A stretch of DNA of 11,736 nucleotides from a virus. Numbering within the stretch: the first letter of the stretch is position 1; every line of letters begins with the position of its first letter. Positions 1 through 11,736 of this stretch are shown here, piece after piece. The stretch is taken from the UHGV virus genome UHGV-0078047. The stretch is one strand, 5' to 3'. Below the pieces are notes generated by a model, which was given only the letters and a program-made list of their open reading frames with translations, was not told the origin of the DNA and made no database searches. The position numbers and the translations under genes are program-made.

Positions 1-119
1 GGGAGGATATGGTGATATGCGTTTCATCTTGCGTGAAGGCGGCAGCATGGGGGATTCGTTCAAGTAAAGATTCGGAAGGGCAGCCAGCAACAGGCCACCC
101 TGCAATGGCATATTGCATG
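1..119 (-). CDS. cIII: cIII-like protein, 5' part only (gene runs off the window start)
   Basis: Minus-strand ATG at 119..117 with AAGGAG RBS 7 nt upstream (complement of 124..129). Open to position 1, 39 codons without stop. First ~22 residues MQYAIAGWPVAGCPSESLLERI match lambda cIII as I recall it; the rest (PHAAAFTQDETHITISS) diverges. Not in the ORF track because it has no in-window stop. Confidence 0.5.
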
Positions 120-190
120 GTGTGCTCCTTATTTATACATAACGAAAAACGCCTCGAGTGAAGCGTAATTGGTATGCGGTAACGCCGCGC

Positions 191-559
191 TCAGGCGGCC
201 TTGATAGTCATATCATCTGAATCAAATATTCCTGATGTATCGATATCGGTAATTCTTATTCCTTCACTACCATCCATTGGAGGCCATCCTTCCTGACCAT
301 TTCCATCATTCCAGTCGAACTCACACACAACACCATATGCATTTAAGTCGCTTGAAATTGCTATAAGCAGAACATGTTGCGCCAGCATGATTAATACAGC
401 ATTTAATACAGAGCCGTGTTTATTGAGTCGGTATTCAGAGTCTGACCAGAAATTATTAATCTGGTGAAGTTTTTCCTCTGTCATTACGTCATGGTCGATT
501 TCAATTTCCATTGATGCTTTCCAGTCGTAATCAATGATGTATTTTTTGATGTTTGACAT
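191..559 (-). CDS. hypothetical early protein, 122 aa; positional and size analog of lambda Ea10
   Basis: ORF in track; GAGGAT RBS 7 nt upstream of ATG on the minus strand. 369 bp, the length I recall for lambda ea10, and 71 bp upstream of the cIII-like start, close to the lambda cIII-ea10 spacing as I recall it. Sequence identity to Ea10 could not be confirmed from memory. Confidence 0.6.
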   Translation of the reverse strand: MSNIKKYIIDYDWKASMEIEIDHDVMTEEKLHQINNFWSDSEYRLNKHGSVLNAVLIMLAQHVLLIAISSDLNAYGVVCEFDWNDGNGQEGWPPMDGSEGIRITDIDTSGIFDSDDMTIKAA

Positions 560-577
560 CTATTCATATCCTCATAG

Positions 578-605
578 ATAAAAAATCGCCCTCACACTGG
601 AGGGC
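578..605 (-). terminator. putative intrinsic terminator in the leftward operon, upstream of the 122-aa gene (tL-like)
   Basis: Inverted repeat GCCCTC (588..593) / GAGGGC (600..605) with 6-nt loop; on the minus strand it is followed after 2 nt by a run of 6 T (complement of the A-run at 578..586). Confidence 0.4.
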
Positions 606-722
606 AAAGAAGATTTCCAATAATCAGAACAAGTCGGCTCCTGTTTAGTTACGAGCGACATTGCTCAGTGTATTCACTCGTTGGAATGAATACACAGTGC
701 AGTGTTTATTCTGTTGTTTATG

Positions 723-748
723 CCAAAAGAAGGCCGACTATGCGGCCT
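723..748 (-). terminator. weaker hairpin plus T-rich tract downstream of the 87-aa gene
   Basis: Stem AGGCCG (731..736) / CGGCCT (743..748), 6-nt loop; minus-strand transcript continues TCTTTTGG. About 40 nt past the stop of the 790..1053 gene. Confidence 0.3.
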
Positions 749-789
749 GTGATGTTAGATTTACTTTCATTTTTGAACGGCAGCTACAA

Positions 790-1053
790 TTATGATGGAA
801 TGTACAAAACCACTTTCCAGTTCATAGAAGTGGATGATGGCATAAAATAATCCCACGACTCGTTAGCTACGAGCTCTTTATTAACTGTGGTGGCAGCAAT
901 TTCGGCATCGCCTTTATTATTAAAAATGTCGTTCGAATACTGACATTTTCCATCTGCATGCACATATAAAATATCATATGTCTCTGTATCGTAATAACCA
1001 CTTATGTCTCTGATAACAATTCCTGGCTTCAATGATTTAATTTTCTCGTCCAT
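790..1053 (-). CDS. hypothetical protein, 87 aa, unknown function
   Basis: ORF in track; strong RBS GAGGTGAGATATG on the minus strand. No family recognised by eye. Sits between N and the ea10-like gene, where lambda has ral/sieB. Confidence 0.65.
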   Translation of the reverse strand: MDEKIKSLKPGIVIRDISGYYDTETYDILYVHADGKCQYSNDIFNNKGDAEIAATTVNKELVANESWDYFMPSSTSMNWKVVLYIPS

Positions 1054-1107
1054 ATCTCACCTCAAATAAGTGGTTTGCTGCGAAAATAAATCCGCTTAAG
1101 TTACCTG

Positions 1108-1245
1108 TTATTTATCCCACCAAGTTCCGTATCTATCTATCCAGTTACACCAATCATCGACACTCCATTTTGCTGTGTCGCATTTTGGCAAATGGCATGA
1201 ATATCTACCTTCTTTGTAAAGTCGGCGTTTGACTTTCTTGAGCAT
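1108..1245 (-). CDS. possible small Cys/Trp-rich protein, 45 aa
   Basis: Hand translation of the minus strand: MLKKVKRRLYKEGRYSCHLPKCDTAKWSVDDWCNWIDRYGTWWDK. ATG at 1245..1243 preceded by GAGGTGA, which overlaps the N stop codon. Below the ORF-track size cut-off. Confidence 0.35.
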   Translation of the reverse strand: MLKKVKRRLYKEGRYSCHLPKCDTAKWSVDDWCNWIDRYGTWWDK

Positions 1246-1253
1246 GGCTCACC

Positions 1254-1559
1254 TCAATCGTAATAAGCTGGAATTGATTTTCCGCGTTGTTTCTGGCGGC
1301 CTGAGCAAGTCACACCCATTTCACTGCGTGGCTTGCGGTAGTAAATACGGTTCTGTTTACGCTCGACTTCTTCTGCCTTCTTGCAGCGAAGGCTTCCGAG
1401 TGATGCTGCTTTATCTGCTCTGACGCAACCAGAGAGCTTTAGCGCAATTTTTCGCGCCAGTCGCTGCTCTTGCATTGCCTGTTCACGTTGAGCCTGTCTG
1501 CGTGCTCTGCGGCGATTTCTGGCGTTATCGTCAGCCAGATATGTAATGACTACTGCCAT
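1254..1559 (-). CDS. N: N-type transcription antitermination protein, 101 aa
   Basis: Arginine-rich N-terminal motif NARNRRRARRQAQ; C-terminal ...YYRKPRSEMGVTCSGRQKQRGKSIP resembles the lambda and phage 21 N C-termini as I recall them. GGAGG RBS upstream; located immediately downstream of the pL/nutL region. Confidence 0.85.
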   Translation of the reverse strand: MAVVITYLADDNARNRRRARRQAQREQAMQEQRLARKIALKLSGCVRADKAASLGSLRCKKAEEVERKQNRIYYRKPRSEMGVTCSGRQKQRGKSIPAYYD

Positions 1560-1702
1560 GTTGACCTCCGATGATTGACTTTGGCGATTGGATGGCCGGT
1601 GCTGAACTCCGGCTTATTTACAGGCACCTTGTTCTCCCGAAGCTCTCCTGCGCGCATCAGCCTGCGCATTCATCCAATCCCAAAGCCAACTACTCTTTGG
1701 TT

Positions 1703-1742
1703 CCCGCATTTCGGCGGGACAATTCCATCAATGTTAAAGAGC
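1703..1742 (-). promoter_or_regulatory. nutL: boxA plus boxB-like hairpin
   Basis: Minus strand reads GCTCTTTAACA (complement of 1732..1742), 13 nt spacer, then CCCGCCGAAATGCGGG (complement of 1703..1718). The same boxA and the identical 16-mer occur downstream of cro on the plus strand. Confidence 0.6.
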
Positions 1743-1788
1743 CTGCCAATCTGTTCCGTTTGGCTACCAGCGTCCTGCTGATGGCTTA

Positions 1789-1842
1789 AATTTAAGATCT
1801 CTTTAATTAATGGTCAAGAGTATTTTTGAAGAAAACTTAAAT
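1789..1842 (-). promoter_or_regulatory. pL with OL operators (P22-type 18-bp sites)
   Basis: ATTTAAGATCTCTTTAAT (1790..1807) matches the P22 operator consensus ANTNAAGNNNNCTTNANT at 10 of 10 fixed positions; TTTGAAGAAAACTTAAAT (1825..1842) matches 9 of 10. Minus-strand -35 TTGACC (complement of 1812..1817) and a -10-like TAAATT (complement of 1789..1794) with 17-bp spacing. Confidence 0.6.
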
Positions 1843-1883
1843 TTTCTTTCGTAACTTAAGTTTGGCTTTGATTTTTAAAGGAA

Positions 1884-1907
1884 ATAAAAAAAGGGGCGAA
1901 TGCCCCC
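1884..1907 (-). terminator. intrinsic terminator immediately after the repressor gene
   Basis: Minus-strand transcript reads GGGGGCATTCGCCCC followed by TTTTTTT; the stem begins 1 nt after the c2 stop codon. Confidence 0.7.
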
Positions 1908-2558
1908 TTATGGAAGGTTTGCTAGTTTTGCATCGACAACTACGCCGATGATTTTGCAGTTCCCGTTGATCTCGATCATCGGATATTGTGGGTTAAGTGG
2001 TTTTAGAAACTTCCTGCCTGCATCAATAACTAACTTCTTGAAAGTTGCCTCGTTTTCTCCTTCGAGCTTTGCAACTACCAGTTTCCCGTTACGCGGCTCT
2101 ACTTCAGGATCGACGAGTATTATCATTCCTTCAGGGATACTGAGACCGGCCGGAGCCGTCATTGAGTCTCCCTTCACGTCCAACCAAAACGAATCTTCTG
2201 AACAGTCTACGGTTGTATCGTACCAGTTATCTATTGCACGCTTATGATATGGTTCTACAGCTTCCATCCAGCATCCTGCGCTCACCCAGCTAATCAGAGG
2301 GTATGACCCTCTTGGATCATGCCTACTGTGATAGGCAATGTTTGAAAGACTTTCCTCTCCTTTCATCAGATAGTCAGGGGAACACTTCAACGCATTAGCC
2401 AGGGCGAGAAGATTCTCTCCATTTGGCTCTGTCTCAGAGCGTTCCCACTGAGATATGGCAACATTAGACACGCCGACCATCTTTCCAAGTGCGGCCTGCC
2501 TGATCTTGAGTTCTTTTCTCCGAGCGCGAATGCGCTCTCCCATCAATTGAGTTTTCAT
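1908..2558 (-). CDS. c2: P22 c2-type repressor (CI-like, HTH plus LexA-like C-terminal domain), 216 aa
   Basis: ORF in track. MKTQLMGERIRARRKELKIRQAALGKMVGVSNVAISQWERSE... matches P22 c2 closely as I recall it; divergently arranged with cro across the operator region. Confidence 0.95.
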   Translation of the reverse strand: MKTQLMGERIRARRKELKIRQAALGKMVGVSNVAISQWERSETEPNGENLLALANALKCSPDYLMKGEESLSNIAYHSRHDPRGSYPLISWVSAGCWMEAVEPYHKRAIDNWYDTTVDCSEDSFWLDVKGDSMTAPAGLSIPEGMIILVDPEVEPRNGKLVVAKLEGENEATFKKLVIDAGRKFLKPLNPQYPMIEINGNCKIIGVVVDAKLANLP

Positions 2559-2624
2559 AGTTAAGACATCTTAAATAAACTTGACTTAAGATTCCTTTAG
2601 TGGATAATTTAAGTGTTCTTTAAT
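2559..2624. promoter_or_regulatory. OR3-OR2-OR1 operators with PR (rightward) and PRM (leftward)
   Basis: Three 18-bp sites each matching ANTNAAGNNNNCTTNANT at all fixed positions: AGTTAAGACATCTTAAAT (2559..2576), ACTTAAGATTCCTTTAGT (2584..2601), ATTTAAGTGTTCTTTAAT (2607..2624). PR -35 TTGACT (2581..2586) and -10 GATAAT (2603..2608). Confidence 0.8.
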
Positions 2625-2638
2625 TTCGGAGCGAGTCT

Positions 2639-2824
2639 ATGTACAAGAAAGATGTTATCGACCACTTCGGAACCCAGCGTGCTGTAGCTAAAGCGTTAGG
2701 CATTAGCGACGCAGCAGTCTCTCAGTGGAAGGAAGTCATCCCAGAGAAAGACGCCTATCGACTGGAAGTCGTTACAGCTGGCGCCCTGAAGTATCAAGAA
2801 AGCGCTTACCGCAAAGCGGCATAA
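2639..2824 (+). CDS. cro: Cro repressor, P22 type, 61 aa
   Basis: ORF in track; MYKKDVIDHFGTQRAVAKALGISDAAVSQWKE... matches P22 Cro as I recall it; first gene downstream of PR. Confidence 0.9.
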   Translation: MYKKDVIDHFGTQRAVAKALGISDAAVSQWKEVIPEKDAYRLEVVTAGALKYQESAYRKAA

Positions 2825-2831
2825 GCAAATT

Positions 2832-2875
2832 GCTCTTTAACAGTCATGGTCCTCATTCCCGCCGAAATGCGGGAA
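2832..2875 (+). promoter_or_regulatory. nutR: boxA plus boxB-like hairpin
   Basis: GCTCTTTAACA at 2832..2842 (same core as E. coli rrn boxA), then 15 nt, then CCCGCCGAAATGCGGG at 2858..2873 (stem can extend to TTCCCGC/GCGGGAA, 2856..2875). Identical 16-mer to nutL. Confidence 0.65.
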
Positions 2876-2932
2876 TACAACGCGCATAAGTTGATGCGCA
2901 TAACTTCTTATTTGTTAAGGAAATACTTACAT

Positions 2933-3226
2933 ATGGTTCGTGCAAACAAACGCAACGAGGCTCTAAGAATCGAGAGTGCGTTGCTTAACAAAATCGCAAT
3001 GCTTGGAACTGAGAAGACAGCGGAAGCTGTGGGAGTTGATAAGTCGCAGATCAGCAGGTGGAAGAGGGATTGGATTCCAAAGTTCTCAATGCTGCTTGCT
3101 GTTCTTGAATGGGGTGTCGTTGACGACGACATGGCTCGATTGGCACGACAAGTTGCTTCGATTCTCACCAATAAAAAACGCCCGGCGGCAACCGAGCGTT
3201 CTGAACAAATCCAGATGGAATTCTGA
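2933..3226 (+). CDS. cII: CII transcriptional activator, lambda type, 97 aa
   Basis: [51 protein letters not shown]... matches lambda CII from memory. The track ORF 2846..3226 is longer; the true start is the internal ATG at 2933, which gives 97 aa. Confidence 0.9.
2942..2955 (-). promoter_or_regulatory. CII-binding site of PRE (TTGC-N6-TTGC)
   Basis: Plus strand GCAAACAAACGCAA is TTGCGTTTGTTTGC on the minus strand, a direct TTGC repeat with 6-bp spacing inside the first codons of cII, as in lambda PRE. Confidence 0.6.
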
Positions 3227-3248
3227 GGTCATTACTGGATCAATCCAC
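3171..3248 (-). ncRNA. oop: oop antisense RNA, about 77 nt, overlapping the 3' end of cII
   Basis: Minus strand reads GTGGATTGATCCAGTAATGACCTCAGAATTCCATCTGGATTTGTTCAGAACGCTCGGTTGCCGCCGGGCGTTTTTTATT, nearly identical to lambda oop as I recall it, ending in a GC-rich hairpin and T6. Confidence 0.6.
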
Positions 3249-3258
3249 AGGAGTAATT

Positions 3259-3405
3259 ATGACAAAACAACTCAGTCCTTACCAGGACAAAATTCACAAA
3301 CACATACTACGTGATCGCTTCCTGTCCAGCTTCAAGCAGCCTGGTCGATTCCGGGCTGAGTTGGAAAAAGTGAAGCTGATGCAGAAGGAGAAAGGTCATG
3401 ATTAA
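3259..3405 (+). CDS. possible small protein, 48 aa, between cII and the O-like gene
   Basis: Hand translation [56 protein letters not shown] at 3249..3253. Its ATG and RBS sit where lambda has the O start. 3' end overlaps the O-like ATG by 8 nt. Confidence 0.35.
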
Positions 3406-4258
3406 TCTTGCAACCGTAACACATTTAAGGCCTTCACAACGGCCTGTGGAGCGTCGTGTGGCAGAAGTTGAAGATGGTTATACCCGTCTTGCAAATGCCC
3501 TGTATGAAGAGCTTATCGGCGCAGATTTAACGAAAAATCAGAGCAAGGTTGCCCACGCCATATGCCGTAAAACATACGGCTACGGTAAAAAGATGGATCG
3601 CATCTCTGATAGTCAGTTAGCTCAAATTACCAGGCTGCCAAGACAGAAGGTAAACAAGGCCAAGAATGAGCTTATCGCGATGAAGGTTATCCTTCGCGAA
3701 GGCCAGCAAATCGGGCCTAACAAGAACATCGAAGAATGGAAAATCGAAGGGTGTCACTACTCTGGTGATAATGTCACTGCATTGGTGACAAAAAGTGTCA
3801 CCAAAACGGTGACAGCGCTGTCACCAAAACAGGGACACACAAAAGAAACTATTACAAAAGAAAAAAGAAATAATAAAAACACTATGTCCGAAAGTGTTCG
3901 GACGGAGTGTGAAAAATCACCTGACCGTCACGAAGAAACCGACAAGGCATTCGAGGAAATATTCTGGTGTGCAGGCATGCGGAAAGCCGGGAAGAAAAAC
4001 GCAGCTACGGCATTCAGAACACAGTTCAGGGAATGGCGTAAAACTACCAAGGGTACGGCAAGCGAGTTTGCCACGATGCTGGCAGAAGACATCGCATGCA
4101 GGAATGGTAAGCAGTTCGGATTCGACAGGTTGTTACCATCGAGCTACCTGAACGGTCAGCGCTGGAACGACGAAAAGCCAGAAACCATTCAACCACAATC
4201 TAAACCATCATCCGCAATCACCGTATCGAAAACTGGCTACGTGTTTTTCGACAGGTGA
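3398..4258 (+). CDS. O: replication initiator, lambda O-like N-terminal domain with divergent C-terminal domain, 286 aa
   Basis: Residues ~25..115 ([14 protein letters not shown]...[11 protein letters not shown]...[16 protein letters not shown]...GPNKNIEEW) align with the lambda O N-terminal domain from memory. Contains the iteron array. C-terminal half not lambda-like. Confidence 0.9.
3751..3885. repeat. origin of replication: inverted-repeat iterons plus AT-rich tract inside the O-like gene
   Basis: Repeated GTCAC...GTGAC palindromic units, including TGTCACTGCATTGGTGACA (3772..3790), GGTGACAAAAAGTGTCACC (3784..3802) and GGTGACAGCGCTGTCACC (3808..3825), followed by an A/T-rich stretch at 3841..3885. 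Same layout as ori-lambda. Confidence 0.6.
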
Positions 4259-4261
4259 ACC

Positions 4262-4369
4262 ATGAAATCAAAAATCAAATCGCTACTGGTCGCTGGTTAT
4301 AACCACGGCTGGTTAAGTATTTCGTTTGTCGATTTCTGGTTTAAAAATCTCAATCTGAGGGAATCATGA
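4262..4369 (+). CDS. possible small hydrophobic peptide, 35 aa, translationally coupled to the primase/helicase gene
   Basis: Hand translation MKSKIKSLLVAGYNHGWLSISFVDFWFKNLNLRES. AGGTGA RBS at 4253..4258; its stop overlaps the primase ATG as ATGA (4366..4369). Confidence 0.3.
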   Translation: MKSKIKSLLVAGYNHGWLSISFVDFWFKNLNLRES

Positions 4370-6246
4370 CGCCAAGTGAACTTAGCGACCTGCTTTGGGC
4401 GCAGGTTGACAGGGTGGCTCCGCACCTGTTGCCGAACGGCAAGAAAGAGGGGCATGAGTGGGTTGCCGGTAACGTCAACGGTGACAAGGGAAACAGCCTT
4501 AAGGTCAACCTTAGCGGCAAGAAAAAATGGGCTGATTTCGCTGAGGGAGACGGCGGTGACATGCTTGATTTGTGGATGGCATGTCGAGGAATTAACCTGC
4601 ATCAGGCTATGCAGGAAGCGAAAGCATTTCTCGGTATCAAGGATGACGATCACCATTTCGATGCCAAACGTGAGAAGAAATTCTCCAGACCTGATCGCAA
4701 GAAAATCGCCCGCTACGTTACCAGAACAGAATCCCATCTTGAGTACCTGCAATCGCGTGGCATATCGCCAGAAGTCGTAAAGCGCTACGAGGTTGTCAGC
4801 GGCAAGGTGTGGAATGGAGAACGAGAACTGGATGCTCTGGTGCTTCCGTACAAACGCGATGGTGAGTTGTTGCAGGTCAAGCGAATCAGCACTGAGCGCC
4901 CGGACGGGAAGAAAGTCATTATGGCAGAAGGTGATTGCGAACCTTGTCTGTTCGGATGGCAGGCTCTGGACGCTGGCGTGAGGGCGGTTGTGCTTTGCGA
5001 AGGCGAAATTGATTGTATGAGCTATGCGCAATACGGCATCTCGGCGTTATCCGTGCCGTTTGGTGGCGGGAAAGGTGCTAAGCAACAGTGGATTGAGTTT
5101 GAGTATCACAACCTCGACAGGTTTGAGGAGATATTCATCTCGATGGACGTTGATGATGTTGGTCGTGAAGCCGCAAGGGAAATCGCAAGCCGACTCGGTG
5201 AACATCGTTGCCGTCTTGTTACTCTGCCGTACAAAGACATCAACGAATGCCTGATGAACGGTGTTACCGAGGATGAAATCTGGCAGTACATCGGCACGGC
5301 ATCCTACTTCGATCCTGAAGAACTCTACAGTGCGCGAGAGTTTTACCAGGACACTATCAACGCTTTCTACGGCAAGCAGCAGTATCTGTTTAATCCACCG
5401 TGGGAATCTCTGGCAGATAAATTCCAGTTCCGTGAGGCAGAGTTGACGCTGGTCAATGGTGTGAACGGTCACGGAAAAACGGAGGTTGTCGGGCATATGG
5501 CACTTGAGGCAATGCGTCAGGGTGTGAAGACGTGCATCGCGTCACTTGAGCTGAAGCCAGGCATTCTCCTTAAGCGACTTACCCGTCAGGCAACGTGCTG
5601 CAAGATGCCGCCAGTGCTGGAAATTGACTCTGCATTTAAATTTTATGACGAAAGACTTTGGGTGTTTGGCCTGACCGGAACGGCGAAAGCCGACAGGCTG
5701 ATCGAAATATTCGACTACGCTCGCCGCCGATACGGTATCCAGTTATTCATCATCGACAGCCTGATGAAATGTGGCATAGGCGACGATGACTATAACGGGC
5801 AGAAGGCGTTTGTTGACTCGATTTGCGACTTCAAAAACAAAACAAACTCCCACGTCATTCTCGTTACTCACTCGCGAAAAGGAGACAGCGAAGAAAAACC
5901 AACCGGGAAAATGGACGTAAAAGGCTCTGGAGCGATAACAGACCTGACAGACAACCTTTTCATCATCTGGCGTAACAAGGCTCGCGAGAGAGCGTTACAG
6001 AGAGTTCAGAGTGGTGAAAAGATGTCAGAGAAGGACGAACAGCTACTGGCATCTCCGGCATCTGTTTTGATGCTTGAAAAACAACGTAACGGCGAAGGTT
6101 GGGAGGGTGGTGTCCCGTTGTTCCTTGACGAGCAATCGCACCAGTTCCTGCAACTTGAATCAGGATCGCCATATAGCTACATCGCCAATATGCCGAAATC
6201 GGAATATGACGAGGCGTGGCGACAGGAAAACGTGACGGAGTATTAA
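4366..6246 (+). CDS. bifunctional DNA primase/helicase (Toprim domain plus RecA-fold helicase), 626 aa
   Basis: Toprim signatures VLCEGEIDCMSY and MDVDD; Walker A NGVNGHGKTE; Walker B-like LFIIDSLMK. N-terminal region looks like a cysteine-free analog of a primase zinc-binding domain. Occupies the position of lambda P. Confidence 0.9.
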   Translation: MTPSELSDLLWAQVDRVAPHLLPNGKKEGHEWVAGNVNGDKGNSLKVNLSGKKKWADFAEGDGGDMLDLWMACRGINLHQAMQEAKAFLGIKDDDHHFDAKREKKFSRPDRKKIARYVTRTESHLEYLQSRGISPEVVKRYEVVSGKVWNGERELDALVLPYKRDGELLQVKRISTERPDGKKVIMAEGDCEPCLFGWQALDAGVRAVVLCEGEIDCMSYAQYGISALSVPFGGGKGAKQQWIEFEYHNLDRFEEIFISMDVDDVGREAAREIASRLGEHRCRLVTLPYKDINECLMNGVTEDEIWQYIGTASYFDPEELYSAREFYQDTINAFYGKQQYLFNPPWESLADKFQFREAELTLVNGVNGHGKTEVVGHMALEAMRQGVKTCIASLELKPGILLKRLTRQATCCKMPPVLEIDSAFKFYDERLWVFGLTGTAKADRLIEIFDYARRRYGIQLFIIDSLMKCGIGDDDYNGQKAFVDSICDFKNKTNSHVILVTHSRKGDSEEKPTGKMDVKGSGAITDLTDNLFIIWRNKARERALQRVQSGEKMSEKDEQLLASPASVLMLEKQRNGEGWEGGVPLFLDEQSHQFLQLESGSPYSYIANMPKSEYDEAWRQENVTEY

Positions 6247-6275
6247 ATGACCATCTACATCACTGAGCTAATAAC

Positions 6276-6308
6276 AGGCCTGCTGGTAATCGCAGGCCTT
6301 TTTATTTG
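6276..6308 (+). terminator. intrinsic terminator after the replication genes (tR2-like position)
   Basis: Perfect 8-bp stem AGGCCTGC (6276..6283) / GCAGGCCT (6292..6299), 8-nt loop, then TTTTTATTT. Confidence 0.7.
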
Positions 6309-6322
6309 GGGGAGAGGGAAGT

Positions 6323-6649
6323 GTGGCTGACTGGCAAATTCCAATCATCATTCTTGCCGGAGCTTCGCTGGTTGCTGGCTTTATCCTGCTGAAAAAGCAT
6401 AAAGACCGTGATCAAAAAGTCGAAGTTCTCTATGGGTATCCAGCGAACAGCACAACATGGCTGACCATTTACCACTACCGAAAATCAGGCCGCTGGGTAT
6501 TCGAATGGGATGATCTGTTCGCTGAAAAGCGACCAAAGTCATGGGGAGACATCAGCGAATGCATGATGTTTGAAGAAAGAAAATCCGGCGCAACCCGAGA
6601 AGAGTTTAACGAAGCGTGGAGGCGATTAAGTGAGAGAGGGTATTTGTGA
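6323..6649 (+). CDS. hypothetical protein with N-terminal hydrophobic segment, 108 aa
   Basis: ORF in track; GTG start with AGGGAAG RBS. Residues 6..23 (IPIIILAGASLVAGFILL) form a predicted hydrophobic helix followed by lysines. No family recognised. Confidence 0.7.
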   Translation: MADWQIPIIILAGASLVAGFILLKKHKDRDQKVEVLYGYPANSTTWLTIYHYRKSGRWVFEWDDLFAEKRPKSWGDISECMMFEERKSGATREEFNEAWRRLSERGYL

Positions 6650-6846
6650 GCAAGTACGAAAAATTAGATCAAAACATTCTTTCAATGCTGAGTGAAAGAC
6701 CAACACCTATTTTTGATATCTGGCTTAAATGGCGGAGCAATGGAATGTATATCGAAACCATCGATCGCCGTATGCAATACCTGAGAAAGAAAGGGCTTGT
6801 TGCAAATGTGCGTGGGAAGGGTTGGGTGAAAATTAACCTGTCATAA
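6646..6846 (+). CDS. hypothetical protein, 66 aa
   Basis: ORF in track; GTG start overlapping the upstream stop (GTGA); GAGAGAGGG RBS upstream. Confidence 0.6.
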   Translation: MSKYEKLDQNILSMLSERPTPIFDIWLKWRSNGMYIETIDRRMQYLRKKGLVANVRGKGWVKINLS

Positions 6847-6857
6847 CGGGGATTGAT

Positions 6858-7130
6858 ATGGACGAATCAAGAAAGCAGTTTGAAGAGTGGTTTAAAAACA
6901 AATATCACGTTTCAAGTGACGTGATGAAGATTATGCACATCAAGGTCGAGATTGCATGGGAGGCGTGGCAGGCATCGCGAGCAGCTATTGAAATAACCGC
7001 GCCAAAGTTTATCGACAGCAGAGAAGCATTAGCCAAAGGGTTTACTGTTGATTATTCCAATGGCTTCGGTGATGGAATGGATGCTTATGAGGAAAACATC
7101 CGCGCTGCTGGAGTCAAAGTGAAGGAGTGA
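6858..7130 (+). CDS. hypothetical protein, 90 aa
   Basis: ORF in track; RBS-like GGGGA upstream of the ATG; same strand and tight spacing with neighbours. Confidence 0.65.
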   Translation: MDESRKQFEEWFKNKYHVSSDVMKIMHIKVEIAWEAWQASRAAIEITAPKFIDSREALAKGFTVDYSNGFGDGMDAYEENIRAAGVKVKE

Positions 7131-7132
7131 GT

Positions 7133-7297
7133 ATGAGCGCATACGAAGAAATCATGTTAGCCCTGCGATTCTTTTTCGGTGTGGAAGAAGATGAAAACGT
7201 AAATGAGATTATCGGGCAAGACCATGACCCGATAGGGACTATTGCAGCTGCACTTGACGATTACAGGAGCGTAAATGGTGAGGAAACTAACGTTTGA
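7133..7297 (+). CDS. possible small acidic protein, 54 aa
   Basis: Hand translation MSAYEEIMLALRFFFGVEEDENVNEIIGQDHDPIGTIAAALDDYRSVNGEETNV. AAGGAG RBS at 7120..7125; begins 2 nt after the orf90 stop and overlaps the ninB start. Confidence 0.4.
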   Translation: MSAYEEIMLALRFFFGVEEDENVNEIIGQDHDPIGTIAAALDDYRSVNGEETNV

Positions 7298-7718
7298 ACT
7301 AAGAAGCCCCATCCATCAGCGGAACGCCATTCAAGCTATCCAGCAAATCCTTCCAGACCCAACCAAACCAATCGTAGTAACCATTCAGGAACGCAACCGC
7401 AGCTTAGACCAGAATCGGAAGCTTTGGGCTTGCCTTGGTGACGTCTCTCGTCAGGTTGAATGGCATGGTCGCTGGCTGGATGCAGAAAGCTGGAAGTGTG
7501 TGTTTACCGCAGCCTTAAAGCAGCAGGATGTTGTTCCTAACCTTGCCGGGAATGGCTTTGTGGTAATAGGCCAGTCAACCAGCAGGATGCGTGTAAGCGA
7601 ATTTGCGGAGCTATTAGAGCTTATACAGGCATTCGGTACAGAACGTGGCGTTAAGTGGTCAGACGAAGCGCGACTGGCTCTGGAGTGGAAAGCGAGATGG
7701 GGAGATAAAGCTGCATGA
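7275..7718 (+). CDS. ninB: NinB (Orf) recombination protein, 147 aa
   Basis: ORF in track; ...PDPTKPIVVTIQERNRSLDQNRKLWACLGDVSRQVEWHGRWLDAESWKCVF... matches lambda NinB nearly throughout from memory. Confidence 0.9.
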   Translation: MVRKLTFELRSPIHQRNAIQAIQQILPDPTKPIVVTIQERNRSLDQNRKLWACLGDVSRQVEWHGRWLDAESWKCVFTAALKQQDVVPNLAGNGFVVIGQSTSRMRVSEFAELLELIQAFGTERGVKWSDEARLALEWKARWGDKAA

Positions 7719-8305
7719 ACAAATACCGACTTATTTACGCAGATCCGCCTTGGCAATATCGCGACAAAGCCAACGATGGCAATCGCGGTGCTGGACATAA
7801 ATACGATGTTATGAATGTTCAGGACATTTGCCGACTGCCAGTATGGGATTTAGCGGATCCAGAATCTTGCTTGTTAGCGATGTGGTGGGTGCCGACACAG
7901 CCAGCCGAAGCGCTAAAGGTAATTGAGGCGTGGGGATTCAGGTTGATGACTATGAAAGGCTTTACTTGGCACAAAACCAATAAGCACAAAGGCAACAGTG
8001 CGATCGGAATGGGGCATATGACCCGGGCAAATAGCGAGGATTGCTTGTTTGCTGTTCGAGGGCGGTTGCCTGAGAGAATGGACGCTTCCATATGCCAGCA
8101 CTTTACCGCACCGAGAATGGAGCACAGTGCAAAACCACCGATCGTAAGAGACATGTTAGCTAAGTTGCTTGGCGACGTGCCGCGCTGTGAGTTATTTAGC
8201 CGCGACAAAGTGACCGGGTGGGATATGTGGGGCAATCAGTGCGACTCCGATTTTGAACTGGCTACCGGCATGGCGATTAAACCATGCAAAATGGTGATCG
8301 CATGA
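7715..8305 (+). CDS. DNA methyltransferase, MT-A70-like (N6-adenine class) with DPPW motif, 196 aa
   Basis: ORF in track; N-terminal YADPPWQY catalytic motif; start overlaps the ninB stop (ATGA). Sits where lambda has ninC. Confidence 0.8.
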
Positions 8306-8475
8306 AGCACTGTTATCGATGTGGAGAGCGAAAGGAAGGCGATCGCTTTCGACCCGGGCAACCTTACTGGAATCGATGGTGTCTCCGGTGTGAAAGAACA
8401 CCAACAGGAGTTTTACCACTACCGCAGGAAAAGGAGGACGTATGGCGAGACAGCGACGAAGTATCACCGACATAA
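8302..8475 (+). CDS. ninD: NinD-like small zinc-ribbon protein, 57 aa
   Basis: Internal ATG of track ORF 8284..8475, overlapping the methyltransferase stop as [37 protein letters not shown] has two CxxC pairs. Length matches the 57 aa I recall for lambda NinD; sequence not recalled. Confidence 0.55.
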
Positions 8476-8618
8476 CCTGTGAAAACTGCAAACACCTTCC
8501 AACGAAACGCTCCAGAAATAAACGCAAGCCAATCCCAAAAGAATCTGACGTAAAAACCTTCAACTACACGGCTCACCTGTGGGATATCCGGTGGCTAAGA
8601 CATCGTGCGAGGAAATGA
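8442..8618 (+). CDS. ninE: NinE-like protein, 58 aa
   Basis: Hand translation [58 protein letters not shown], close to lambda NinE as I recall it. Strong AGGAGG RBS at 8430..8435. Below the track size cut-off. Confidence 0.7.
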
Positions 8619-8980
8619 CAATGGATTATTCACAGTTAAGTGATTTTGAGATTAACGTGGCGGTATTCGAAGCCATTCATAACGGATCACCGGATTACAA
8701 AGAAGGTGAGAATGGCGATATGGTGTTTGTCTCATTTGAGGGAGACATTGTAAACGGAGACGCAGTTGAAGTAGAAGTTGAGCGCGGATCCTTTAACCCA
8801 TGCGCAAACCCAGCAGACGCATGGCCGATTATTGAAAAATACAGGATTAGCATTATCAATCTCGATGAAGACGAGTGGGGTGCACGCGGTGTGGCCTACT
8901 GTAAATCTAAGCGAGCTATACATGAAAATCCCCTCCGCGCCGCCATGATTGTCTTTCTCATGATGCAGAGAATCCAATAA
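8615..8980 (+). CDS. hypothetical phage protein (DUF2591-like, assigned from memory), 121 aa
   Basis: Track ORF 8579..8980; likely start is the in-frame ATG at 8615, which overlaps the ninE stop as ATGA and gives [24 protein letters not shown].... Confidence 0.7.
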
Positions 8981-9156
8981 TGCTTAGCCCATCCCAATCC
9001 ATTCAATACCAGAAAGAAAGCGTCGAGCTGGCTTTAACGTGCGCTAACTGCGGTCAGAAGCTGCATGTTCTGGAAGTTCACGTATGTGAGCACTGCTGCG
9101 CAGAACTGATGAGCGATCCGAATAGCTCAATGTACGAGGAAGAAGACGATGAGTGA
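8980..9156 (+). CDS. ninF: NinF-like protein, 58 aa
   Basis: Hand translation [58 protein letters not shown], close to lambda NinF as I recall it. ATG overlaps the upstream stop (TAATG). Confidence 0.75.
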   Translation: MLSPSQSIQYQKESVELALTCANCGQKLHVLEVHVCEHCCAELMSDPNSSMYEEEDDE

Positions 9157-9418
9157 TTTCTCTGAGCTTATTTCCTTCAAAAAAGACAGAGAAGAAATGC
9201 GGACTGAATCTGTCTATTACGTTCAACACCGGAATAAACGCTCGGTGCTTGATCAGGAGCTGGTTATTACCGGAGACCTGGCATTCAGAACATATAAGGC
9301 CAGCATGGAAATGAAGGATTTCCCTAAATGTGGTTCTGAAAGAGAAGCCGCGTTAAAGCTGGCTGAGTGGATGCAGAGAATGGCTGCTGCAATTGAGAAT
9401 TACTGGAGCGAACCATAA
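9149..9418 (+). CDS. hypothetical protein, 89 aa, inserted between ninF and ninG
   Basis: ORF in track; start overlaps the ninF end and stop overlaps the ninG ATG (TAATG). No family recognised. Confidence 0.65.
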
Positions 9419-10029
9419 TGGCTAAACAAGCGCGAAGACGATGTAAAAACGATGATTGTCGGGAATGGTTTCACCCTGCATTCGCTAATCAGTGGTGGTG
9501 CTCTCCAGAGTGTGGAACCAAGATAGCACTCGAACGACGAAGCAAAGAACGCGAAAAAGCGGAAAAAGCAGCAGAGAAGAAACTACGACGAGAGGAGCAG
9601 AAACAGAAAGATAAACTTAAGATTCGAAAACTCGCCTTAAAGCCCCGCAGTTACTGGATTAAACAAGCCCAACAAGCCGTAAACGCCTTCATCAGAGAAA
9701 GAGACCGCGACTTACCATGTATCTCGTGCGGAACGCTCACGTCTGCTCAGTGGGATGCCGGGCATTACCGGACAACTGCTGCGGCGCCTCAACTCCGATT
9801 TGATGAACGCAATATTCACAAGCAATGCGTGGTGTGCAACCAGCACAAAAGCGGAAATCTCGTTCCGTATCGCGTCGAACTGATTAGCCGCATCGGGCAG
9901 GAAGCAGTAGATGAAATCGAATCAAACCATAACCGCCATCGCTGGACTGTCGAAGAGTGCAGGGCCATCAAGGCGGAGTATCAGCAGAAACTCAAAGACC
10001 TGCGAAATAGCAGAAGTGAGGCCGCATGA
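9418..10029 (+). CDS. ninG: NinG (Rap) recombination endonuclease, 203 aa
   Basis: ORF in track; [41 protein letters not shown]... with Cys clusters matches lambda NinG from memory. Confidence 0.9.
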
Positions 10030-10649
10030 GACTCGAAAGCGTAGCTAAATTTCATTCGCCAAAAAGCCCGATGATGAGCGACTCACCACGGGCCACGGCT
10101 TCTGACTCTCTTTCCGGTACTGATGTGATGGCTGCTATGGGGATGGCACAATCACAGGCCGGATTCGGAATGGCTGCATTCTGCGGTAAGCATGAACTCA
10201 GCCAGAACGACAAACAAAAGGCTATCAACTATCTGATGCAATTTGCACACAAGGTATCGGGGAAATACCGTGGTGTGGCAAAGCTCGAAGGAAATACTAA
10301 GGCAAAGGTGCTGCAAGTGCTCGCAACATTCGCTTATGCGGATTATTGCCGTAGTGCCGCGACGCCGGGCGCAAGATGCAGAGATTGCCACGGTACAGGC
10401 CGTGCGGTTGATATAGCCAAAACAGAGCAGTGGGGGAGAGTTGTTGAGAAAGAGTGCGGAAGATGCAAAGGTGTCGGCTATTCAAGAATGCCAGCAAGCG
10501 CCGCATATCGCGCTGTAACGATGCTAATCCCAAACCTTACTCAACCCACCTGGTCACGCACTGTTAAGCCGCTGTATGACGCTCTGGTGGTGCAATGCCA
10601 CAAAGAAGAGTCAATCGCAGACAATATTTTGAATGCGGTCACACGTTAG
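10026..10649 (+). CDS. Q: late-gene antiterminator Q, lambda type, 207 aa
   Basis: ORF in track; [28 protein letters not shown]...[12 protein letters not shown]...[13 protein letters not shown] matches lambda Q essentially throughout from memory. Start overlaps the ninG stop (ATGA). Confidence 0.95.
10313..10326 (-). promoter_or_regulatory. putative paQ CII-binding site (TTGC-N6-TTGC) antisense within Q
   Basis: Plus strand GCAAGTGCTCGCAA is TTGCGAGCACTTGC on the minus strand. Lambda has a CII-activated antisense promoter inside Q. Confidence 0.45.
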
Positions 10650-10691
10650 CAGCATGATTGCCACGGATGGCAACATATTGACGGCATGATA

Positions 10692-10730
10692 TTGACTTTT
10701 TGAATAAAGTTGGGTAAATTTGACCCAACG
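10692..10730 (+). promoter_or_regulatory. late promoter pR' with overlapping qut region
   Basis: -35 TTGACT (10692..10697), 17-bp spacer, -10 TAAATT (10715..10720). The surrounding sequence TTGAATAAAGTTGGGTAAATTTGACCCAACGATGG is near-identical to lambda pR'/qut as I recall it. Confidence 0.7.
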
Positions 10731-10756
10731 ATGGATAAATGCACTCGTTAAATAAA

Positions 10757-10784
10757 GCCCTGAGTTAATAGCTCGGGGCTTTTT
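10757..10784 (+). terminator. tR'-like intrinsic terminator giving a short (~60 nt) pR' leader
   Basis: Stem GCCCTGAG (10757..10764) / CTCGGGGC (10772..10779) with one G-U pair, 7-nt loop, then TTTTT. Confidence 0.65.
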
Positions 10785-10927
10785 GCGTTTTAAGCACGGC
10801 CTTTCTGAAAGCACATCAAACCAAATACCAGACAGACAAAAATAATCACCTTATCCGCTGTGGCTACGGTGCGGTGTGCTTTGCATAAAAGAAAACCAGC
10901 TCAATGGCTGGCTTCGTGAAAGCGGGT

Positions 10928-10962
10928 GGCAAGAGGTTGCGCTAACAACCTCATGCCGTTTT
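10928..10962 (+). terminator. hairpin plus T-run in the Q-S intergenic region (terminator-like)
   Basis: GGCAAGAGGTTG (10928..10939) / CAACCTCATGCC (10946..10957), one mismatch, 6-nt loop, then GTTTT. From 10905 onward the sequence resembles the region upstream of lambda S as I recall it. Confidence 0.4.
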
Positions 10963-11082
10963 GCCCGTGCATATCGGTCACGAACAAATCTGATTACTAA
11001 ACACAGTAGCCTGGATTTGTTCTATCAGTAATCGACCTTATTCCTAATTAAATAGAGCAAATCCCCTTATTGGGGGTAAGAC

Positions 11083-11406
11083 ATGAAGATGCCAGAAAAA
11101 CATGACCTGTTAGCCGCCATTCTCGCGGCAAAGGAACAAGGCATCGGGGCAATCCTTGCGTTTGCAATGGCGTACCTTCGCGGCAGATATAATGGCGGTG
11201 CGTTTACAAAAACAGTAATCGACGCAACGATGTGCGCCATTATCGCCTGGTTCATTCGTGACCTTCTCGACTTCGCCGGACTAAGTAGCAATCTCGCTTA
11301 TATAACGAGCGTGTTCATCGGCTACATCGGTACTGACTCGATTGGTTCGCTTATCAAACGCTTCGCTGCTAAAAAAGCCGGAGTAGAAGATGGTGGAAAT
11401 CAATAA
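11083..11406 (+). CDS. S: holin/antiholin S (class I holin, dual start), 107 aa
   Basis: ORF in track; [39 protein letters not shown]... matches lambda S from memory, including the Met1-Lys2-Met3 dual-start motif. Confidence 0.95.
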
Positions 11407-11736
11407 TCAACGTAAGGCGTTCCTCGATATGCTGGCGTGGTCGGAGGGAACTGATAACGGACGTCAGAAAACCAGAAATCATGGTTATGACGTCATTGTT
11501 GGCGGAGAGCTATTCACTGATTACTCCGATCACCCTCGCAAACTTGTCACGCTAAACCCCAAACTCAAATCAACAGCAGCCGGACGTTACCAGCTTCTTT
11601 CCCGTTGGTGGGATGCCTATCGTAAGCAGCTTGGCCTGAAAGACTTCTCTCCCAAAAGCCAGGACGCTGTGGCATTGCAGCAGATTAAAGAGCGTGGCGC
11701 TTTACCGATGATTGATCGCGGTGATATCCGTCAGGC
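11390..11736 (+). CDS. R: endolysin R (lytic transglycosylase), 5' part only (runs off the window end)
   Basis: ATG at 11390 overlapping the end of S. Hand translation [61 protein letters not shown]... matches lambda R from memory. Absent from the track because there is no in-window stop. Confidence 0.9.

Follow-up and report, generated by a model that had tools for sequence, protein, structure and literature searches.

An MT-A70 family adenine methyltransferase gene in the ninC slot of a lambdoid prophage

Gene content and junctions of the locus

Judged by its predicted genes, the window (the whole 11,736-nucleotide stretch of virus genome UHGV-0078047 that was analyzed) is a standard lambdoid early-right region. 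A CI-like repressor is encoded on the minus strand (positions 1908-2558), followed by Cro, CII, an O-like replication protein (3398-4258), and a Toprim/DnaB-type primase-helicase (4366-6246). Farther along lie ninB (7275..7718, plus strand), which encodes the Orf recombination mediator (PF05772; E = 3.9e-54), the methyltransferase gene studied here (7715..8305, plus strand), and ninD (8302..8475, plus strand; full-length PF17466 match, E = 6.6e-39). Downstream of NinD, we found NinE, NinX, and NinF, then an 89-amino-acid (aa) open reading frame (ORF) without a family match, NinG (9418-10029), and Q (10026-10649), with a lambda-type holin beyond. The same holin gene is annotated as "phage holin, lambda family" in two prophage loci that we compared with the window (L009 and L010). 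As a whole, the window is a mosaic with the greatest similarity to Sf101 and mEp043-type phages, and the annotation of mEp043 includes a "DNA N-6-adenine-methyltransferase" inside the region that matches the window.

The methyltransferase gene is a 196-aa ORF whose catalytic motif IV, DPPW, occupies residues 10 to 13 (7742..7753, plus strand; codons GAT CCG CCT TGG). At the junction with ninB (7701..7718, plus strand), the ATG start codon (7715-7717) overlaps the TGA stop codon of ninB (7716-7718) in the sequence ATGA, and a GGAG Shine-Dalgarno motif (7701-7704) is located 10 nucleotides 5′ of the start. The other end has the same arrangement: the TGA of the methyltransferase gene (8303-8305) overlaps the ATG of ninD (8302-8304) in a second ATGA (8302..8305, plus strand), which is also the point where homology to lambda resumes. 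As ATGA overlaps are present on both sides, translation is probably coupled from ninB through the methyltransferase gene to ninD. The first-pass annotation of this DNA had described both the ORF with DPPW near its N terminus and the ATGA overlap with ninB, and the sequence confirms the two. The GC content of the gene (0.48 to 0.53) is similar to that of its neighbors.

Four small ORFs 5′ of ninB (6323-6649, 6646-6846, 6858-7130, and 7127-7297) have no family matches. We considered them as possible partners of the methyltransferase and rejected them, as they lack Pfam and PADLOC matches and as the genes 5′ of ninB differ elsewhere, namely, in Cronobacter, in Pantoea, and in prophage locus L010 (one small gene in RefSeq). 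Only ninB is consistently linked to the methyltransferase gene.

No restriction nuclease gene adjoins the methyltransferase gene, whose neighbors are NinB on one side and NinD, NinE, and NinX on the other, and PADLOC run on the window matched the methyltransferase alone. The enzyme is therefore an orphan, as the first-pass annotation had proposed, rather than part of a Type II restriction-modification system with an adjoining cognate endonuclease.

The ninC slot in lambda and in E. coli prophages

In lambda, NinB (40644-41084), NinC (41081-41953), and NinD (41950-42123) are joined by 4-bp overlaps on both sides of ninC. When the window was aligned with lambda DNA, identity was ∼97% as far as GCTGCATGA, where ninB stops; the insert that follows had no similarity to lambda, and identity returned at GCATGA, where ninD begins. 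Homology thus ends with ninB and resumes with ninD, which indicates a precise cassette exchange at gene boundaries. The earlier reading that the gene sits in place of ninC is borne out by its position and by the 4-bp overlaps, which are the same as those of lambda ninC (nin290). The slot is all that the two genes have in common, as lambda NinC is a 290-aa protein of the PAPS-reductase family without sequence similarity to the methyltransferase.

To survey the occupants of this slot, we searched with the 3′-terminal 219 bp of ninB and obtained 1,307 matching E. coli records, from which 60 were sampled at even rank steps. According to RefSeq names, the end of ninB was overlapped by a "phage N-6-adenine-methyltransferase" gene in 44 of the 60, by PAPS-reductase (NinC) in 7, and by MT-A70 in 3; NinE followed ninB directly in 3 records, and the last 3 had no overlapping gene. 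One of the 44 "phage N-6-adenine-methyltransferase" genes was checked (in prophage L009) and proved to be a member of the PF05869 Dam family (E = 1.9e-65). The commonest arrangement in E. coli prophages is therefore a DNA adenine methylase after ninB. MT-A70 is a rarer, nonorthologous substitute in the slot, and ninC, the state seen in lambda, is in the minority.

That the slot is usually filled by a DNA adenine methylase is the strongest contextual argument for DNA as the substrate of the window protein. The PF05869 phage Dam proteins resemble it in several respects, as they share the slot, the 4-bp overlap with ninB, a similar size (175 aa), and orphan status. They belong to another Pfam family, however, and the likeness is one of position and not of membership. 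We take M.EcoVT2Dam to be a member of PF05869. That enzyme is given as GATC specific (PMC6602927).

Family, fold, and conservation of the protein

The protein has a single Pfam match, PF05063 (MT-A70; E = 4.7e-25), which covers residues 4 to 175 and profile positions 1 to 172 of 172 and scores 88.9 bits against a cutoff of 23.9. This full-length match, together with 1,078 homologues at an E value of ≤1e-10, excludes a chance ORF. The protein also matches PHROG 359 ("DNA methyltransferase"; 3e-106) and the PADLOC model MTase_II (Type II MTase; 4e-70), and no NCBIfam model matches it. With DPPW at residues 10 to 13, motif IV, (D/N)PP(W/Y), precedes the remainder of the permuted Rossmann core in the sequence. 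On these profile and motif data, the assignment of the protein as a full-length, class beta member of MT-A70 (PF05063) is solid, and SAM-dependent N6-adenine methyl transfer is its predicted activity. The protein stands outside the classical Dam families, that is, alpha-class Dam and PF05869, as its only Pfam match is to MT-A70.

The best sequence match in the PDB is MTA1, a subunit of the Tetrahymena DNA 6mA methylase (E = 9e-11), followed by METTL3 (3e-6). Both alignments cover residues 2 to 178, DPPW included, and the METTL3 alignment extends over METTL3 residues 387 to 553. We built an AlphaFold2 model from 42 sequences (pTM, 0.78; mean pLDDT, 75), in which residues 18 to 22 and 95 to 103 have low confidence. 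A Foldseek search with this model gave TM scores of 0.65 to 0.68 overall, with METTL3 at 0.67 (E = 5e-13) and MTA1 at 0.66 to 0.68. As METTL3 and MTA1 score equally, the fold search leaves DNA and RNA enzymes unseparated. METTL3-METTL14 and MTA1-MTA9 share the fold (TM score, ∼0.67) and the DPPW motif with the phage protein, but they are obligate heterodimers with accessory nucleic acid-binding subunits, whereas neither a paralogous nor an accessory subunit is encoded near the phage gene.

The first-pass annotation had named the product an adenine-type DNA methyltransferase, as opposed to a member of a non-DNA methyltransferase family. The adenine class stands, given PF05063, the DPPW motif, and the fold; the DNA part of the name holds only as a likelihood. 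MT-A70, the family found, is a mixed DNA/RNA family and not one purely of DNA methylases. Its inclusion of the METTL3 RNA methylases, a fold match to METTL3 that equals the match to MTA1, and the name "N6-adenosine-specific RNA methylase IME4", under which several databases list the protein, all favor a different reading, in which the product methylates RNA (for instance, 16S rRNA) and thereby tunes translation and prophage induction. We return to this reading with the biochemically studied relatives, which bear on it most directly.

Across 44 aligned relatives, down to 46% identity, 42 columns are invariant. D10, P11, and W13 are among the invariant positions, and P12 is nearly so. The conserved core extends up to WGN(Q/E)C (residues 172 to 176), and the tail past approximately residue 178 is variable.

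Distribution and genomic contexts of homologues

Public annotations of hundreds of enterobacterial genomes already contain this gene, with its family and position, so that it is a known feature. An identical protein is encoded on 380 public contigs from several genera, under names such as [quoted passage not shown] and "S-adenosylmethionine-binding protein [Salmonella enterica]". At a DNA identity of at least 95%, the gene is present in 39 of 5,426 complete E. coli genomes, compared to 258 of 5,426 for the gp5-type allele (described below), which is thus the commoner of the two in this species. All 15 of the E. coli matches listed have the annotated order NinB, MT-A70 family methyltransferase, and NinD; E. 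coli prophages are annotated with the same 4-bp ninB/methyltransferase overlap, and a P22-like prophage in E. coli EC6622 is an example carrier. By tblastn, homologues were found in 517 phage records. A megablast search of the gene against isolated phage genomes gave a sole match, Erwinia phage 59 (75% identity). The known carriers of the allele are prophages, not isolated coliphages.

In every context examined for homologues with at least 82% identity, NinB was directly 5′ of the methyltransferase gene. The homologues in Cronobacter (92%) and Pantoea cypripedii (83%) overlap ninB by 4 bp, and the homologue in Erwinia phage 59 (82%), the closest phage relative, comes after a ninB-like gene. 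The nin region of Erwinia phage 59 also has a Dcm-type cytosine methylase. More distant relatives are int proximal, at the opposite end of the early region, and 3′ of PerC, DUF1317, or winged helix-turn-helix (wHTH) genes. These include the homologues in epsilon15, Enterobacter phage Tyrion, and a Klebsiella phage (75 to 77% identity), Pantoea stewartii (79%), and phiPA8 (64%).

These data also bear on whether the gene is an inactive or decaying passenger that does nothing for the phage. The nin region is dispensable, and the low count of carriers among complete E. coli genomes would fit such a gene. Against this, the ORF is intact, the invariant columns (DPPW among them) persist in distant relatives, the identical protein has spread across several genera, and the coupling to ninB is kept in Escherichia, Cronobacter, Pantoea, and an Erwinia phage. 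We therefore regard a functionless passenger as highly improbable.

Biochemically studied relatives

A literature search with the accession numbers of the ninB-linked clade and of the group with at least 68% identity found no paper. The closest biochemically studied relative is phiPA8 gp5 (M.EcoPA8orf6770P), which is 64% identical to the window protein over residues 3 to 187 (E = 3e-90), that is, across the catalytic core, DPPW included. Purified gp5 alone had near-background activity on DNA (dam-negative DNA included) and on RNA, but in a 1:1 complex with PNB-2, the wHTH product of the gene 5′ of gp5, it was reported to use 16S rRNA >13-fold better than DNA (PMC10810198). Increased spontaneous induction and virulence depended on the DPPW motif of gp5, and changing DPPW to APPA abolished function (PMC10810198). 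The gp5 unit is int proximal and induced in stationary phase, and the authors link the C-terminal tail of gp5 (the last ∼27 aa) to the co-occurrence of PNB-2 and suggest that PNB-2 binding requires the tail (PMC10810198). Both the preference of a 64% identical relative for 16S rRNA and its near-background activity on DNA count against a DNA methylase. The preference also favors the RNA reading introduced above, as does the effect of gp5 on spontaneous induction (PMC10810198).

The likeness to gp5 has limits, however. While gp5 and M.EcoGV, both from Stx2a prophages, share the family, the RefSeq name, and prophage orphan status with the window protein, gp5 has 208 aa rather than 196 and is encoded beside int/xis and 3′ of PNB-2, whereas the window gene is in the nin operon without PNB-2. 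A PNB-2 homologue was not found in the window (tblastn; best E = 3), nor, at an E value of ≤0.01, in the epsilon15, Tyrion, and Klebsiella phage loci or in a 40-kb stretch of the EC6622 prophage, which carries the same methyltransferase gene. PNB-1 was likewise not found in the window or in the examined loci. PNB-2 appears to be confined to the setting of Stx phages. Residue 187 of the window protein and residue 189 of gp5 are the last positions that align, and past approximately residue 178 the tails bear no relation to each other and vary within the family. The rRNA evidence itself comes from an assay of SAM consumption, with the modified base left unmapped, as the paper states (PMC10810198).

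The two proteins also differ in a loop at residues 86 to 102 (7970..8020, plus strand), which we consider a candidate substrate or gate loop from its conservation within the clade, its low pLDDT, and its position at an insertion site. Among 114 columns that are at least 90% conserved in the group of the window protein, gp5 differs at 18, and 11 of these are in this loop. The loop is nearly invariant within the clade and common to the epsilon15/Salmonella group, and its pLDDT, which falls below 50 at residues 95 to 103, predicts flexibility. From the METTL3 and MTA1 alignments and from general knowledge of METTL3, we infer that it is in the region of the substrate/SAM gate loops, and it may have a role in specificity. 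As PNB-2 is absent, the tail is unconserved, and the loop is divergent, the rRNA model appears unlikely for the nin-operon protein. Location in the nin operon rather than in an int-proximal, stationary-phase-induced unit also speaks against RNA methylation, to which we assign a low probability.

Other relatives are reported to act on DNA. M.EcoGV, the MT-A70 enzyme of the Stx phage of E. coli O104:H4, is highly similar to gp5 (PMC10810198), is cited as having methylated GATC in vivo when overexpressed (PMC10810198, citing Fang 2012), and is given as GATC specific (PMC6602927). The reported substrates conflict, M.EcoGV having acted on GATC DNA in vivo and the gp5/PNB-2 complex on 16S rRNA in vitro (PMC10810198, citing Fang 2012 for the former). 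When the MT-A70 protein p32 of Serratia phage vB_SspM_BZS1 was expressed alone in a dam-negative host, plasmid GATC sites became resistant to MboI and sensitive to DpnI (PMC7556043). M.EfaBMDam of Tn1549 is also cited as GATC specific (in PMC7556043). Like the window protein, p32 and M.EfaBMDam are MT-A70 members and single small polypeptides. At 44% identity to the window protein, however, p32 is too distant for a safe transfer of specificity; it is also int proximal and has a 24-aa insertion after residue 91, within the loop at residues 86 to 102. As this loop differs sharply from those of both gp5 and p32, GATC specificity is not confidently transferable to the window protein.

Target site and specificity

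The first-pass annotation held that the target site cannot be read from the sequence. This is strictly right, and the relatives reported to act at GATC offer a weak prediction, so that GATC is the best guess for the site, although a weak one that we hold tentatively. The window contains 31 GATC sites compared to 59 expected under a Markov model (ratio, 0.52), and 5 of the 31 are inside the 591-bp methyltransferase gene. Other palindromes are depleted too (CTAG, 0.10; TATA, 0.50; AATT, 0.63), and therefore the GATC statistics do not identify the target. Depletion of GATC is general in enterobacterial phages. Two observations run against a GATC methylase. In a dam-positive host, GATC methylation would add little unless host Dam is limiting, and a phage that protects itself has no need to deplete GATC, yet this genome is a mosaic.

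Alternatively, the protein may methylate adenines in DNA with relaxed specificity or at a site other than GATC. It would then give broad protection from many restriction systems, in the manner of M.EcoGII or of the nonspecific OS31 and PhiARM81ld phage enzymes, and a broad enzyme fits an anti-restriction function better in a dam-positive host. The small size of the protein (196 aa, with no separate target recognition domain) and its clade-specific putative substrate loop are compatible with this, and nonspecific prophage adenine methylases are known in enterobacteria (PMC5778455, PMC7556043). The known nonspecific enzymes differ from the MT-A70 relatives, however (PMC7556043, PMC5778455), and the DNA-acting relatives p32, M.EcoGV, and M.EfaBMDam are all described as GATC specific in the sources cited for them (PMC7556043, PMC10810198, PMC6602927). 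A relaxed or non-GATC specificity is thus conceivable but rather doubtful.

A further reading is that the ninB-linked and epsilon15/Salmonella MT-A70 enzymes form a specificity class of their own, directed at neither GATC DNA nor rRNA in the manner of gp5 with PNB-2. Candidate substrates would then include RNA, a novel DNA motif, or the single-stranded intermediates of replication or recombination on which NinB acts. We judge such a class, whose members would have the loop at residues 86 to 102 in common, to be improbable.

Expression and proposed function

A strong intrinsic-terminator-like hairpin resembling tR2 (6276..6299, plus strand) has an 8-bp stem with six GC pairs, followed by TTTTATTT. 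It is located 30 nucleotides past the stop of the primase-helicase gene and 5′ of all nin genes. No sigma-70-like promoter was found on the plus strand between the hairpin and the methyltransferase gene. In lambda, where tR2 precedes the nin region, nin expression needs N antitermination. By analogy with lambda, the hairpin suggests that the methyltransferase is expressed only through N-antiterminated read-through, and it should thus be delayed early and silent in the lysogen. This agrees with the earlier placement of the gene in a delayed-early operon, as it lies in what would be the N-dependent nin operon.

We consider the gene to be probably, though far from certainly, an orphan MT-A70 DNA adenine methylase made during lytic growth and carried as a ninC-replacing cassette. 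The host of the cassette is the nin region of a lambdoid (P22/Sf101-like) prophage. Under this model, transcription from pR would reach the gene only if N carried it past the terminator at 6276-6299, and translation would proceed by coupling to ninB. During lytic growth, the enzyme would methylate adenines within a short site, for which GATC is the leading candidate, in phage and host DNA undergoing replication. Methylation would compensate for phage replication that outruns host Dam, and packaged genomes would be fully methylated and so protected from methylation-sensitive restriction in the next host. The anti-restriction role put forward in the first-pass annotation is plausible in this scheme and, like the scheme itself, hypothetical.

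Implications for phage MT-A70 enzymes

Lambdoid prophages of E. coli normally carry a methylase gene next to ninB, on its 3′ side, and the significance of the present case, as it stands, is small. Its interest is in what it may reveal about the family. If the ninB-linked and epsilon15/Salmonella enzymes do constitute their own specificity class, the label "Dam-like" would be wrong for them. As the substrates of phage MT-A70 enzymes have been reported conflictingly, as GATC DNA on the one hand and 16S rRNA on the other, the partnerless version in the nin operon would provide a clean test case, which could reveal whether the catalytic subunit acts by itself as a DNA methylase and whether its substrate is set by the loop at residues 86 to 102.

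The gene slot after ninB

To survey the slot downstream of ninB, we collected E. coli genome records matching window positions 7500-7718 (the 3′ end of ninB) and sampled 60 of them evenly. The E. coli prophages differed in which gene overlaps the ninB stop. A Dam-family PF05869 methylase occupied the slot in 44 of the 60 records (assigned by the RefSeq name "phage N-6-adenine-methyltransferase," with one checked against PF05869), NinC in 7, an MT-A70 methyltransferase in 3 and NinE in 3, while the remaining 3 had no gene overlapping the stop. In this even sample, the ninC of lambda is a minority state of the slot.

The closest phage homologue of the window's methyltransferase (82%) is found in Erwinia phage vB_EhrS_59. 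The nin region of this phage carries a Dcm-type cytosine methyltransferase together with the MT-A70 homologue (2501-4932 of the phage locus, L003), placing two orphan methylases in one operon.

Genomic context

The replication module (3398-6246) comprises an O-like initiator and, instead of lambda P, a 626-aa Toprim/DnaB-like primase-helicase; Sf101 and mEp043-type phages have the same module. A strong intrinsic-terminator-like hairpin lies on the plus strand 30 nt downstream of the primase-helicase stop (6276-6299; AGGCCTGC...GCAGGCCT, then TTTTATTT). This hairpin is probably the equivalent of tR2 and as such would render the nin genes N dependent.

Four small open reading frames (ORFs) lie upstream of ninB (6323-6649, 108 aa; 6646-6846, 66 aa; 6858-7130, 90 aa; and 7127-7297, 56 aa) and a fifth at 9149-9418 (89 aa). 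None of the five matched in a Pfam search, and none of the four upstream of ninB matched in a PADLOC search; by visual inspection alone, the product of the 66-aa ORF resembles a small helix-turn-helix protein. Although the longest ORF for ninD spans 8284-8475 (63 aa), homology to lambda and the hit to the Pfam NinD family both start at the ATG at 8302 (57 aa). Both lengths occur in RefSeq annotation, with 174 nt in the E. coli EC6622 prophage (L002) and 192 nt in another E. coli prophage (L010). Q directly follows NinG with a 4-bp overlap (9418-10649), and ninH and ninI (phosphatase), present in lambda and the EC6622 prophage, are absent from the window.

Tetranucleotide counts and a candidate specificity loop

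Across the window (1-11736), GATC occurred 31 times against a Markov expectation of 59, roughly half, and CTAG was nearly missing (1 observed, 10 expected). The 591-bp methyltransferase gene itself contains five GATC sites, one of them in the DPPW codons.

Within the methyltransferase, the loop at residues 86-102 (codons 7970-8020, plus strand) is near-invariant across the window protein and 41 relatives (at least 68% identity). Of the 18 conserved-column differences separating this group from gp5 of the Stx phage phiPA8, 11 fall within the loop, and p32 of Serratia phage BZS1 carries a 24-aa insertion at the same site. The loop is a candidate specificity determinant, one that may divide phage MT-A70 enzymes into subclasses.
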